The notes: generated by a model from the sequence alone, not told the origin. DNA of 64,000 nt from Candidatus Heimdallarchaeota archaeon (GCA_018238155.1 JABCTZ010000036.1:352001-416000); one strand, 5' to 3'. Shown: positions 57,896 through 64,000, counted from the first letter of the stretch. A program made the numbers and translations.

Positions 57896-60800
57896 ATGGT
57901 TGCTGATACAAGATTTAATCAAATAATGGAAAATAAAAAACCGATATTGGCATTTAATCCTTTAGGACTCAATGATCTAGGATTAGTAAAAGCAGTAAAC
58001 AAAGCAGGTGGCATAGGTTTAATTAATCTTGAACGTATGACAGCTCAAGGATACCAAGCAATATTAATAAAATGCTTGTCAGAAATTACAAATATTGTTG
58101 GAATTCGAGTAGTAAATAAAGATCAATTGAATTTCATTTTGGAACACTCCTCAAAACAACAAAGTTTGATACTCATTATTGCTGATGTTTCTCTAAGCAA
58201 AGAGCAAATAAAATTGGCAAAAGAAAAAAGAATGTCACTTATTGCAGAAGTTATTTCATTAGAAGAAGCTTATGATAAAAAGTGGGCTGATGTTTTTCTA
58301 TTAAAAGGTGCAGAAGCTGGCGGAAGAGTTAGTGATGAAACTTCCTTCATTCTTACTCAGCAATTTGCAGAGGCTGGACTTGAATTCATTGTTCAAGGTG
58401 GAGTCGGTATTTATACTACTCCAGCACTCTTTGCTGCTGGAGCTAAAGCTGTTGTGCTTGATACACAATTGTATACTATGCCTGAATGCCCCTTATCAAA
58501 GGAAGTAAAAGATTTTCTTGTTAAACTTGATGCAACTGATACAAAAATTATTGGTGATTCAACAAGTTACAAATACAGAGTATATGCTCGCTTAGCAACA
58601 AAAATCGTTAAAGATTTTATCAAGATTGAGAAAGATCTTCTTGGTTTATCTCTTGAAGAGCGGACAAAGAAAATTAAACAAAAAATAGAAGATGAGAAGG
58701 AATCTTTCAATAGCCCTACTTTAGCTAATTGTCTGCTACCAATAGGTCAAGATGTTTCTTTTATTAACATCTTTTCAAAGAGATTTTCATCTGTGGAAGA
58801 AGTTTTTGACGGTCTTCTTGAACAAACTAAAAAACAAATCAAAAATACTCTTGATAATTATCCTTTCAAAAGTGGTTCTGATTTAGCAAAAGATTTGGGA
58901 ATAAAATATCCCTTAATTCAAGGTCCAATGGCTAATATTTCCGAAAGCCCTGAATTTGCCAAAATCATTGCAGAAGAAGGAGCTCTTCCTATTCTTGCTC
59001 TTGGTTCTCTGTTCAAAAACCAATCCAGAAATTTAATCAAGAAAACTAAGGAAACATTAGGCTCTCTTCCGTTTGGTTGTGGAATCATTGGTTTAGATGC
59101 TAATGCTACTGCTCGAGATAACCATTTAGTGATAATTAAAGAAATACAACCATCATTGGTTGTTGTAGCTGCTGGAACAATTGATTTAGCAAAGGAAGTT
59201 ATGAGTTATGGTGACATTAAGACTTTCTTACATTCACCCTCTCCCTTGATTTTTTCAGAAGCAATTGAAACTGATGTTAGATACTTGGTTCTAGAAGGTA
59301 TGGAATGTGGTGGCCATATTGGTATTTTAACTAGTTTTGTTTTATGGGAACTATCCCTACATCAACTAGTACGATTACAAGATAAAATAAAAGCAAGTGG
59401 AAAGAAGATCAATGTAGCTTTTGCTGGTGGCATTGGAGATCGATTTTCTGCTGCAATGGTTGCAGTTATTGCGTCAGCTTTACCTGACCTAATGAACAGT
59501 GCACTATGGGTAGGTACAGCTTATATTCTTACAGAAGAAATTGTTGATACTGGTGCAGTAAAACCTCTTTATAGAGAACAAGCATTAGATGCTAAAGAAA
59601 CAGTTCTTCTTGGTGAGACTGTAAGCATTCGAGCCAGAACAATTCCAACACCATATGCTAAAGTTATTGTTGAACGAGAACTAGAACGAATAAAGGACGG
59701 TATAAGTCTCAAAGAACGTAAACATCTCTTCGAAAGAGATAATCTGGGTTCAACTCGTATAGCTGCATTAGGTGAAATTTGGAATCCTGATGGAGAAGAT
59801 GATAAACCAAATAGATTTGTACCAATTGATGAAAAAGGTCAATACGAAAAAGGAAATTATATGATAGGTCAGATAGTTGGTAGTTTACGAAGTATTCGTA
59901 CTGTAAAGGATCTTCATATGGAATTAATTGAAGAGTCAAAAAGAGTTGTTAGTACCAAAGGAAAAAGTATTACCAAACAATTTGAAGCTAAAGATGATTC
60001 TGTTAAAACAATTAATTCGCAAATTGAACATGATCATACAAGTCCAATACCTGATGATATCCCTCATGGTGAGGGTGTTGCAATTGTTGGTTTAGGTGGA
60101 ATCTTTCCAGATGCATTAAATATTGATCAATATTGGAAAAATATTACTTTAGGACTTTATTCAGTAAAAGAAATACCAAAAGAAAGATGGTCCAATGACC
60201 TTAGCCTCTTTTATTCTCCTGACCCATTTGAACCCGATAAAACATATGCGAAAATTGCTGCAACAATTGATGATTTCAAATTCAATTCATTGGAATTTAA
60301 AATACCTCCAAAAGTTGCTCTAAGGATGGATCGCGTTCAGCAATTCGCTTTGGTAGCTGCAAAAGAAGCTCTAATTGATGCCAATATTTTAGATAAAGAT
60401 AATTCAAACACAGCTGTTATTATTGGAAACAGTATGGGTGGAGAGATTCGAGTGGATTACAATAGAAGAATTTTCTTACCTGAAACCTATCGTTCTTTGG
60501 AAAAATGTGCTTCTTTTAGTAATATTGACAAAGGTGTTTGGAAGAAAGTCAAAGAAGAATTAAAAGTGATTTATGACAGCGATCTTTTGTCAATAAATGA
60601 GGACTCGATGCCTGGAGAATTATCTAATGTAATTGCAGGTCGAGTAGCCAATGTCTTCAATCTTCGAGGTAAAAGTATGACCTGTGATGCTGCTTGTGCA
60701 TCAAGTTTAGCTGCTTTGAATATCTCCGTTAAAGGATTACTAGATAATGAGTACGATGTTGTTCTTTGTGGTGGATCAGATTGTTCATTAGATGCGTCCA

Positions 60801-63800: not shown

Positions 63801-64000
63801 ATGAATTAATTCAACAAATATCAAATAAAACCTCAAGAGAAAATGTGACAAAGTGGTTTGAAAAGAATAAAGCCTCACTTGCTGGTGATAAGAAATCGAA
63901 ATACCAGTTCAGTCGGAAATTCTTATTCGAAGTTCTTTCAATGGGTCATTCTCAATTTGCTCAATTTATTCGAGCACGAGGACCAAATACTCAAGTAAAT
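57896..64000 (+). CDS. Type I iterative PKS/FAS-like megasynthase, truncated by the window end (ER-like, ER, KS, AT, second KS)
   Basis: ATG 57896 after AGGAGA. In frame: KGAEAGG; QGPM..EGMECGGH..FAGGI; VAIVG..DAACASS..EAHGT..IGHLK..SFGFGG; FPGQGSQ..GHSLGE..AFHS; VTGIAIGLPG..RARGPNTQVN. Confidence 0.93.
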   Translation, partial: MVADTRFNQIMENKKPILAFNPLGLNDLGLVKAVNKAGGIGLINLERMTAQGYQAILIKCLSEITNIVGIRVVNKDQLNFILEHSSKQQSLILIIADVSLSKEQIKLAKEKRMSLIAEVISLEEAYDKKWADVFLLKGAEAGGRVSDETSFILTQQFAEAGLEFIVQGGVGIYTTPALFAAGAKAVVLDTQLYTMPECPLSKEVKDFLVKLDATDTKIIGDSTSYKYRVYARLATKIVKDFIKIEKDLLGLSLEERTKKIKQKIEDEKESFNSPTLANCLLPIGQDVSFINIFSKRFSSVEEVFDGLLEQTKKQIKNTLDNYPFKSGSDLAKDLGIKYPLIQGPMANISESPEFAKIIAEEGALPILALGSLFKNQSRNLIKKTKETLGSLPFGCGIIGLDANATARDNHLVIIKEIQPSLVVVAAGTIDLAKEVMSYGDIKTFLHSPSPLIFSEAIETDVRYLVLEGMECGGHIGILTSFVLWELSLHQLVRLQDKIKASGKKINVAFAGGIGDRFSAAMVAVIASALPDLMNSALWVGTAYILTEEIVDTGAVKPLYREQALDAKETVLLGETVSIRARTIPTPYAKVIVERELERIKDGISLKERKHLFERDNLGSTRIAALGEIWNPDGEDDKPNRFVPIDEKGQYEKGNYMIGQIVGSLRSIRTVKDLHMELIEESKRVVSTKGKSITKQFEAKDDSVKTINSQIEHDHTSPIPDDIPHGEGVAIVGLGGIFPDALNIDQYWKNITLGLYSVKEIPKERWSNDLSLFYSPDPFEPDKTYAKIAATIDDFKFNSLEFKIPPKVALRMDRVQQFALVAAKEALIDANILDKDNSNTAVIIGNSMGGEIRVDYNRRIFLPETYRSLEKCASFSNIDKGVWKKVKEELKVIYDSDLLSINEDSMPGELSNVIAGRVANVFNLRGKSMTCDAACASSLAALNISVKGLLDNEYDVVLCGGSDCSLDASIFVKFAKIGAISAEGSYPFDKRANGFVMGEGAGFVVLKRLSDAERDGDKIYAVIRGLGAASDGKGKGITAPNPIGQKLAIQRALDQAGVTFPDIQFIEAHGTATGVGDVVEMAVLNEMAENTPKSSIVISSVKSQIGHLKSAAGIASTIKTALALYHKKFPPTANFKYPNPKVAWETSPFYVTTEVKDWPQPVSGHRIAGISSFGFGGTNFHAIMEEYIPGETIGHLPKLFTKEELDSLVLRVSQMALHSGDGQGFTTVFDEASWENFYNENIVLETEPLFVGGTSDAALLKNLKALKTKIPKSTFALNGTGTRIHDFSQETMSALSQKKRIGIVSKSLDDLPSLIDSAISGQQDKAKRLILRNKGIFYGEDHSLGKIAFMFPGQGSQYVRMGKELWDKYDIVKEAFKEADEVTQTELGFSLTEIIFAIGKDDAEAKALLRKTEVTQPAIFAVNIGIYRLLRSFGIKPDFVAGHSLGEYAALVASGIVSFKDGLMAVIPRGKAMSLFESDDNGMMASVSSDAETIEEVLKSVKGYVIAANKNTPSQTVISGASPAIKEAIKIFIEKGITAIPLPVSAAFHSEIVAPAEKFLRESLEKLTFNKPSIALSSNVTGGIYPETRQEIIDLLCKQVYSPVEWMKQIENMYEEYGVRTFIEIGPKYVLTSFAKSVLNDKKDFVALASNHPKRGAMQHLNEVLAALGAFGYPLKIPNKDDSIYSEEFRNPTKRFFKRKAISIPSIAPSTSTPKVITKESPFDVLAFGDLASITKNDDFNDYLELQAPAINAFLKAGYDTYQNIIAKALETKKEIDRLNINTDAVGVTGIAIGLPGKNRKVFDDSNFDAILSGQNFIEKTSVQLREKIVEKNIVRLVKDAVKGAQFQSITDVSEVIKLAAQKGEFDLTKDYGVQAEFTEIFDVTFQLALAAGIEALKDAGIPLMPLKIKTSVGKEISKGWVLPESMRDETGIVFASAFPASNNLISIVSQSLADKYASKHKDETILLFDELIQQISNKTSRENVTKWFEKNKASLAGDKKSKYQFSRKFLFEVLSMGHSQFAQFIRARGPNTQVN

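Follow-up and report, generated by a model that had tools for sequence, protein, structure and literature searches.

A 64,000-nucleotide stretch of contig from a Candidatus Heimdallarchaeota archaeon (hereafter the window; GCA_018238155.1, JABCTZ010000036.1:352001-416000, G000:C15:352001-416000 in our numbering) ends inside an open reading frame (ORF) for a type I megasynthase. We found that the complete ORF encodes 3,574 amino acids and is native to its archaeal host. From its domains, conserved residues and gene neighbourhood, the protein is probably an intact, self-sufficient, self-activating and fully reducing type I fatty-acyl synthase that works iteratively and belongs to the PfaA-like Type R family.

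The frame opens at ATG 57896 on the plus strand and runs for 2,035 codons without a stop to the window end at 64000, as recovered by an ORF listing that allows open ends. On the 461,240-bp contig (C15) it closes at position 420620, 4.6 kb beyond the window edge (protein P0002, L002:896-11617; ORF end L002:11620). A sequence-only reading of the window had proposed a single frame of more than 2,035 amino acids at this site, carrying a ketosynthase (KS) triad, an acyltransferase (AT) serine with an AFHS motif, and an enoyl reductase (ER) with an ECGGH motif. The frame is real and longer than proposed. The KS and AT residues lie exactly where they had been placed (Cys934 at nucleotide 60695, His1068 at 61097, His1106 at 61211 and Ser1443 at 62222), and both AFHS (His1548) and ECGGH (His474) were recovered. 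Downstream of the window the same ORF is intact, not degraded, and contains two acyl carrier proteins (ACPs), a ketoreductase (KR), a dehydratase (DH) and a phosphopantetheinyl transferase (PPTase). The source assembly comprises 4.08 Mb in 46 contigs, with a completeness of 90.7% and a contamination of 5.9%. Pfam, NCBIfam and domain-wise phmmer agreed on the following domain order, all on the plus strand:

57896..64000 in the window (2,035 of 3,574 codons), plus strand: megasynthase ORF, from the ORF listing, Pfam and NCBIfam
57896..58870, plus strand, aa 1-325: ER1, degenerate FabK-like TIM barrel (TIGR03151, 52.9 bits)
58871..60055, plus strand, aa 326-720: ER2, FabK-type FMN enoyl reductase (TIGR03151, 86.3 bits)
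60056..61480, plus strand, aa 721-1195: KS1 ketosynthase (Pfam ketoacyl-synt and Ketoacyl-synt_C)
61913..62845, plus strand, aa 1340-1650: AT with malonyl-type motifs (Acyl_transf_1 6.5e-46, FabD model 3.5e-74)
63353..64000 in the window and continuing past its edge, plus strand, aa 1820-2310: KS2 ketosynthase (FabF model 9e-38)
L002:7928-8455, plus strand, aa about 2345-2520: ACP1-ACP2 (Pfam, NCBIfam and phmmer)
L002:8513-9925, plus strand, aa 2540-3010: KR with its structural half (Pfam KR 1.4e-31)
L002:10013-10900, plus strand, aa 3040-3335: DH (Pfam, NCBIfam and phmmer)
L002:10928-11617, plus strand, aa 3345-3574: Sfp/HetI-type PPTase (ACPS 2.7e-14, HetI-like model 2e-15)

Over the whole ORF, Pfam also gave E-values of 6e-71 for ketoacyl-synt and 1.9e-21 for NMO, alongside the Acyl_transf_1, KR and ACPS values listed above.

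Catalytic residues were counted in an alignment of 108 relatives. The residues of KS1 (Cys934, His1068, His1106), AT (Ser1443 in GHSLG, Arg1468, His1548 in AFHS) and KS2 (Cys2038, His2186, His2226) are invariant (108/108), as are the KR Ser and Tyr and DH His3076. DH Glu3240 is kept in 105/108 and Gln3244 in 107/108, and the PPTase Asp, Glu and Lys are kept wherever relatives have the domain. The polypeptide thus unites KS, AT, ACP, KR, DH and ER, with the catalytic residues of KS, AT, KR, DH and ER2 kept. The second KS of this family was labelled a chain-length factor (CLF) in 2011, but a Cys-less CLF is ruled out by the universal Cys/His/His triad, and KS2 is therefore of the active ketosynthase type. 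By known motif rules, the AT would be specific for malonyl units. Neither Pfam nor NCBIfam detected a FabA-type dehydratase/isomerase, methyltransferase, thioesterase, cyclase or reductive-release domain in the ORF; a FabA-type domain was also lacking in the scanned neighbour genes, the rest of the genome not having been searched for it. The DH region gave no significant match by sequence to solved structures.

The two ER barrels are paralogous, at 25% identity. In ER2, His474 of ECGGH is kept in 40/40 relatives having this domain. Position 144 of ER1 is Arg and no relative has His there, and ER1 is probably non-catalytic. An AlphaFold model of residues 1-715, built with 28 homologs, placed both barrels in one rigid unit (pLDDT 91.8, pTM 0.93). 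In a Foldseek search with this model, the best matches were FabK enoyl-ACP reductases (TM 0.85-0.89 by target) compared with 0.54-0.56 for PfaD, and the ER region of yeast fatty acid synthase (FAS) was among the weaker fold matches. Because FabK acts as a dimer, the tandem of dead ER1 and live ER2 probably forms a built-in pseudo-dimer.

Both ACPs read DLGIDTV (residues 2384-2390 and 2478-2484; L002:8045-8065 and 8327-8347), with Thr in place of the conserved carrier Ser expected of an ACP-dependent type I FAS. Among the 120 closest homologs, both archaeal and bacterial, almost all carrier domains, which form arrays of 2-6 copies, have the motif DLG[IV]DT[VI]. In most relatives a PPTase is fused or adjacent, with its catalytic Asp, Glu and Lys kept. 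That the Thr motif is so conserved, and is accompanied by a dedicated PPTase, speaks for carriers that work with an unusual attachment residue, in which case the PPTase would accept Thr. Outside this ORF, no PP-binding or ACPS domain was found in the 4.08-Mb genome (90.7% complete), so that the enzyme must activate itself, without another carrier-dependent partner.

The megasynthase is the last member in the window of a gene cluster, whose other members are as follows:

52537..53292, plus strand: biotin protein ligase, BirA-like (BPL_LplA_LipB 2e-19, BPL_C 9e-09)
53317..54078, minus strand: alpha/beta-hydrolase, 253 aa (Pfam Hydrolase_4, Abhydrolase_1, BAAT_C)
54093..54584, minus strand: biotin carboxyl carrier protein of acyl-CoA carboxylase (Biotin_lipoyl 3e-15)
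54584..56059, minus strand: biotin carboxylase (CPSase_L_D2 5e-67, Biotin_carb_N, Biotin_carb_C)
56213..57838, plus strand: carboxyltransferase (Carboxyl_trans 2e-193), separated from the megasynthase ATG by 57 nt

Synteny was checked by tblastn of the neighbour proteins against twelve relatives. The carboxyltransferase is directly upstream of and co-directional with the megasynthase in 11/12; the remaining one (L021) is on a contig that begins too near the gene to show the arrangement. Genes for the biotin ligase, hydrolase, biotin carboxyl carrier protein and biotin carboxylase adjoin the megasynthase in families f1 (that of the host), f3, f5, f19 and f20 (Loki-type), closed chromosomes included, though not each gene in each family. 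The biotin ligase homolog stands beside the carboxyltransferase or megasynthase in f1, f3, f19 and f20, and the hydrolase homolog adjoins the megasynthase in f1, f3 and f20. The nearest solved relatives of the hydrolase are the S33/Hydrolase_4 esterases 9h0z and 7q4h, and its GxSxG elbow is kept as GVSLGG. It is a candidate chain-release thioesterase. The cluster is thus a malonyl-CoA supply and synthase with a probable release module.

Other genes adjoin the cluster. A homolog of the branched-chain polyamine synthase BpsA (window 50799-51962, minus strand, BpsA_C 7.6e-55) is kept there in same-genus genomes at ~60% identity. Directly downstream of the megasynthase lies a gene for a 615-aa TPR-repeat protein (L002:11739-13586, plus strand), whose position is kept in the family's other genus (54% identity in G091). 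In both closed Heimdallarchaeum genomes, and only in that genus, a PlsY gene stands beside the biotin ligase of the cluster.

The host belongs to the Heimdall-type Asgard archaea. The assembly's single small-subunit rRNA scored 1391 bits against the archaeal model and 1046 bits against the bacterial model, and TFIIB genes are present, the TFIIB model matching only archaeal genomes among the controls. Ras-family GTPase matches number 42 across the contigs, with five on contig C15. GC content is uniform over the window and across contigs. Among 1,683 ORFs of at least 300 aa, the megasynthase has the codon usage closest to the genome mean, with a GC3 of 0.203 against 0.231 +/- 0.037. The nearest database proteins are full-length, 54-63% identical and identical in architecture; where named, they come mostly from Heimdallarchaeota or "Asgard group" metagenome-assembled genomes (MAGs). 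NCBI lists two such homologs (P0003 and P0005; 60-63% identical, full-length, same architecture) as 'Zixibacteria' and 'Bathyarchaeia', but both nest inside the Heimdall clade and so probably represent mis-binned MAG contigs.

Across the phylum, the megasynthase was found in 74/400 genomes. It is present in 11/11 genomes of the host's own family f1, 1/1 of f2, 29/31 of f3, 2/3 of f4 and 12/12 of f5, compared with 1/22 of f6 (a single weak match), 0/2 of f7, 3/14 of f19 and 13/135 of f20. Throughout f1 (11/11), and in closed Asgard chromosomes, the orthologs are full-length and have the same flanking genes; those of the same genus are 3,576-3,612 aa long. Three carriers are closed chromosomes (G015, G016 and G134), including that of Ca. 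Heimdallarchaeum aukensis PM71 (CP084166.1; G015). In CP084166.1 (L029, ~485,000-495,400) two tandem matches to the KS1-AT segment were found and the gene reads as two ORFs of 1,510 and 2,729 aa, which could reflect a tandem duplication or a split megasynthase.

Type R synthases were defined by a PfaA homolog of the order KS-malonyl-acyltransferase (MAT)-CLF-ACP(3-6)-KR followed by a PPTase gene, with members in Koribacter, Solibacter, Elusimicrobium and Roseiflexus (Shulse & Allen 2011, PMC3098273). The Koribacter cluster also holds an acetyl-CoA carboxylase gene (PMC3098273). The Heimdall ORF fits this family of secondary-lipid synthases as a fused Asgard variant. It shares with Type R a single PfaA homolog, the order KS-MAT-second KS-tandem ACP-KR, a PPTase encoded with the synthase, here as the fused C-terminal domain, and the Thr-type carrier motif. 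It differs in the fusion of PPTase and tandem FabK-type ER into the same chain, in its Asgard host and in the clustering of a full carboxylase, a biotin ligase and a hydrolase with the synthase. It also has two ACPs instead of 3-6, a number shared with its closest clade, while other Asgard members have 3-4. The best named model was TIGR02813 (PfaA), whose score of 945.2 bits fell short of the cut-off of 1010.1.

The sequence-only reading had likened the protein to Pfa-type lipid synthases and to FAS I of fungi and mycobacteria. With that sub-threshold TIGR02813 score, the Pfa likeness holds at the level of the family; it does not extend to the ER, which is structurally nearer to FabK than to PfaD or fungal FAS. 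Compared with the pfaABCDE system, the order KS-AT ... tandem ACP-KR-DH is common to both, with specific matches of the ACP and KR segments to the PfaA model. By contrast, the PfaC-type KS-CLF, the FabA-like domains and PfaB of the polyunsaturated fatty acid synthase are lacking and the ER is FabK-like rather than PfaD-like; polyunsaturated products are therefore not expected. Fungal type I FAS has an FMN TIM-barrel ER, a built-in PPTase that self-activates the ACP and a malonyl/palmitoyl transferase, and has no second KS. The FMN TIM-barrel ER and the built-in PPTase are alike in the two, but domain order and architecture are unrelated, making this an analogy of design and not a matter of membership.

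Relatives of the protein are widespread. KS2 is 50-59% identical to members from Roseiflexus, Acidobacteriota, Elusimicrobia and Thermoplasmatota (50-55% to Roseiflexus and Acidobacteriota); for an Elusimicrobium homolog the identity is 44%. Searching species-representative genomes with two peptide motifs specific to KS2 gave at least 600 matches; those listed include Thermoplasmatota, Heimdallarchaeum, Roseiflexus and many other Chloroflexota, Acidobacteriota, Actinomycetota, Myxococcota, Verrucomicrobiota, Bacteroidota, Spirochaetota and Calditrichota. Almost all mapped relatives have the core KS1-AT-KS2-ACPn-KR-DH, to which PPTase and ER may or may not be fused, depending on the lineage. 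Asgard sequences usually combine everything in one chain with a tandem ER, a form that a few bacteria (Bradymonadales, some Spirochaetes) also have. In a KS2 tree rooted on KS1 paralogs (quick search), all Asgard sequences fell in one clade (SH-aLRT 95), together with one Thermoplasmatota and one Spirochaete sequence, and this clade lies beside, not inside, a large bacterial clade holding Roseiflexus and Acidobacteria; the root is on a very long branch (2.9 substitutions) and sampling is biased toward the query. Archaeal sequences are near the base in this tree and in a FastTree midpoint tree, and given the long root branch and biased sampling no donor is named. From this placement, the gene appears to be an old resident of Asgard archaea.

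We also looked for genes that might use the product of the megasynthase. FakA and FakB convert free fatty acid to acyl-phosphate, which is used by PlsY. The genome has six PlsY-family genes (103-161 bits), a model that matched no archaeal control. The best of them (C6:63777-64514) is the last gene of a FakA-FakB-PlsY operon at C6:63777-66559, together with a DegV/FakB gene (245.8 bits) and one for a Dak2+FakA_M protein. Two further DegV-PlsY pairs lie at C13:73367-74979 and C1:109694-111330. The FakA-DegV-PlsY order recurs in the same genus, and FakA is conserved. A GT87-like glycosyltransferase gene follows PlsY on C6. DegV copies number 11 in this genome, 5-23 in f1, 3-18 in f3 and 0-2 in f6. 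PlsX was considered as an alternative source of acyl-phosphate and was found in none of the 83 genomes of the class (families f1-f7). The arrangement resembles the Firmicutes FakA/FakB-PlsY system in having Dak2+FakA_M, DegV and PlsY in one operon and in that no PlsX was found. It differs in its short FakA-like protein (330 aa), its 11 DegV and six PlsY copies, and in that PlsC was not found in this family. Bacterial PlsY takes acyl-phosphate made by FakAB and accepts both glycerol 1-phosphate (G1P) and glycerol 3-phosphate (PMC13400652).

Taken together, these results favour the following pathway. Biotin ligase and the three-subunit acyl-CoA carboxylase would provide malonyl-CoA, and the C-terminal Sfp-type PPTase would prime the two in-cis carriers at the Thr in the Ser position. 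AT would load malonyl units, KS1 and KS2, both of the active type, would extend the chain, and KR, the polyketide synthase (PKS)-type DH and FabK-type ER2, paired with its dead copy ER1, would reduce each beta-keto group. The product would be a largely saturated acyl chain, because there is no FabA-type isomerase domain to form cis double bonds. The adjacent alpha/beta-hydrolase would probably release this chain, and in this Heimdall lineage the free acid could pass through FakA/FakB to acyl-phosphate and through PlsY to acyl-glycerol phosphate.

Several points weigh against this fatty-acyl pathway. The hydrolase is by sequence a generic esterase and the ORF has no integrated thioesterase in Pfam, while the DH is of polyketide type. 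We draw the link between the megasynthase and FakAB/PlsY from their co-occurrence, and bacterial FakAB serves the uptake of outside fatty acids. PlsC was found in no genome of f1-f3, leaving the standard diacyl phospholipid route incomplete there. DegV was found in 0/135 genomes of f20, megasynthase carriers included, and so is rejected as a constant companion of the megasynthase outside the Heimdall class. Type R is itself catalogued among 'secondary' lipid synthases, the characterised members of which make polyunsaturated fatty acids, heterocyst glycolipids or phenolic lipids (PMC3098273). The active enzyme might then make a specialised lipid or reduced polyketide, such as a very long chain, a hydroxy-alkyl chain or a hydrocarbon precursor, that serves in the envelope, as a store or in protection against stress, with FakAB/PlsY independently scavenging outside fatty acids. 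We regard this as the more unlikely outcome, albeit one to be taken seriously. Besides the family definition, the tandem ACPs and PKS-type DH speak for it, as do two KS domains, which suggest partitioning of chain length. Loki-type genomes carry the same cluster with a strong geranylgeranylglyceryl phosphate synthase (GGGPS) and no DegV, and only archaeal lipids are reported for the cultured Asgard Lokiarchaeota representative (as cited in PMC13400652). However, a full KR-DH-ER set without isomerase, methyltransferase, cyclase or reductive release predicts a plain saturated chain. Moreover, no other ACP-dependent machinery was found in the genome, yet 11 fatty-acid-binding DegV proteins and six PlsY need a source of fatty acids, and the distribution of the cluster is not patchy, nearly all genomes of five families having it.

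A fatty-acyl synthase also has to have working carriers. Thr2389 and Thr2483 align exactly under the phosphopantetheinyl Ser of the solved carriers PigH (5y08), NDUFAB1 (8e73) and ACP (6lvt), which counts against priming. To our knowledge, Ser is the rule and no characterised carrier is primed on Thr, and no report of Thr-linked phosphopantetheine was found in the literature searched, subscription papers lying outside the search. Should Thr in this position prevent priming, the protein would either be a non-functional remnant or operate with no swinging arm, perhaps by acting on intermediates bound to CoA. This is very improbable. The Thr motif is kept in nearly every carrier, in 2-6 copies, across more than 100 archaeal and bacterial relatives, most of which have a fused or adjacent PPTase with intact Asp/Glu/Lys, and the remaining catalytic residues are conserved as well, as expected of a functional system under purifying selection. 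A bacterial or chimeric contig mis-binned into an archaeal MAG, or a very recent transfer from bacteria, is for practical purposes refuted. The MAG has an estimated contamination of 5.9%, some close homologs carry the 'Zixibacteria' and 'Bathyarchaeia' labels and the family is abundant in bacteria. Against this stand a 461-kb contig of uniform GC with five Ras-family GTPase genes and host-typical codon usage, the same cluster in the closed Asgard chromosomes G015, G016 and G134, and the single, well-supported Asgard clade of the paralog-rooted KS2 tree; the oddly labelled homologs are nested among Heimdall sequences. The archaeal origin of the contig, on which the sequence-only reading had depended, is thus secure, and a native, self-activating fatty-acyl synthase remains the probable reading.

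The sequence-only reading had further suggested that such an enzyme bears on the lipid divide between archaea and bacteria. This idea gains circumstantial support from the FakA-FakB-PlsY operons in the same genome, short of proof. We compared the 83 class genomes for the relevant genes:

PlsY: strong in all genomes of f1-f5; weak matches only in f6 (11/22) and f7 (2/2)
GGGPS (PF01884): no credible match in f1-f5, both closed genomes included, with one odd strong match in G020; present in 19/22 of f6 and 2/2 of f7
GGGPS, with an f7 protein as query: nothing credible in f1-f5; 48-56% identity in 20/22 of f6
CarS: kept in f1-f5 and in f6-f7
G1P dehydrogenase-like enzyme: absent in f1 only; present in f6-f7
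PlsC: absent in f1-f3, present in f4-f5; present in f6-f7, thus with or without the megasynthase

The distribution is suggestive of PlsY-type acylation having taken over from the first ether-forming step within a single Heimdall subclade, and points to either a GGGPS analogue or an altered lipid chemistry. In its fullest form, the proposal would be that in five GTDB families including Heimdallarchaeaceae, fatty acids made de novo leave the megasynthase, receive a phosphate from FakA/FakB and are then esterified to glycerol phosphate by the enlarged PlsY set. The resulting acyl or hybrid acyl/isoprenoid lipids would partly or wholly replace the GGGPS-dependent first ether bond, with Thr-borne phosphopantetheine as a corollary. 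We hold this extended scheme to be doubtful. It rests essentially on one phylogenetic contrast, and in f19, a family of another class, GGGPS was mostly undetected, in genomes with and without the megasynthase, closed ones included, so that another, undetected form of GGGPS may exist. A specific tie between GGGPS loss and the megasynthase is weakened by f19 and by the Loki-type carriers, which keep strong GGGPS; the latter also lack DegV, and together these two features count against the link to FakAB/PlsY.

Current reviews and a 2024 preprint describe archaea as without FAS I/II and almost always without ACP and its synthase, and archaeol bilayers were predicted for Heimdallarchaeia in a 2025 paper. 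PlsY and PlsC of Asgard genomes are mentioned in papers focused on lipids, which name no acyl source. The megasynthase had been described by the sequence-only reading as hidden, which overstates its novelty: members of the protein family already stand in databases under generic names, a "novel PKS cluster" was mentioned for one Heimdall bin in a 2020 paper, and other surveys list PKSs in Asgardarchaeota without detail. No account devoted to the Asgard enzyme, to its Thr carriers, to the absence of GGGPS in Heimdall families or to the distribution patterns was found in the literature searched, subscription papers again lying outside it.

Rfam and tRNA scans of the window gave no matches. An NCBIfam scan of ten other window genes returned Cas3, ABC exporters, an amidase and an MFS protein, with half matching no family, and was uninformative for taxonomy. 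A CRISPR array at 11586-12309 consists of ~10 units of a 37-nt repeat (GTTTCAATACTCATAATTGAGCTTTATTCTTTGCATC) with spacers of ~39-40 nt. Downstream of it, a co-directional ORF block (16036-27144) includes a Cas3 HD-helicase gene at 22647-25232, and several large ORFs of this block (16036-17595, 17932-19626) match no NCBIfam family. An MsbA/HepA-like ABC exporter pair, lipid- or glycolipid-exporter-like by NCBIfam, is located at 27941-31521 on the minus strand, ~26 kb upstream of the synthase cluster.

The locus provides a cloneable candidate for the source of acyl chains for the PlsY and PlsC homologs long noted in Asgard genomes. One gene carries all activities and its own activating enzyme, with the malonyl-CoA supply alongside. 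Together with the fatty-acid kinase route to PlsY and the lack of a detectable canonical GGGPS in the same genomes, this makes the lipid divide testable in relatives of eukaryotes. If Thr priming is true, hundreds of synthases with Thr carriers in place of the universal Ser would represent a new carrier-protein biochemistry. If the replacement of the first ether bond is also true, these Heimdallarchaeia would be present-day archaea that stand on, or straddle, the bacterial/eukaryotic side of the divide.

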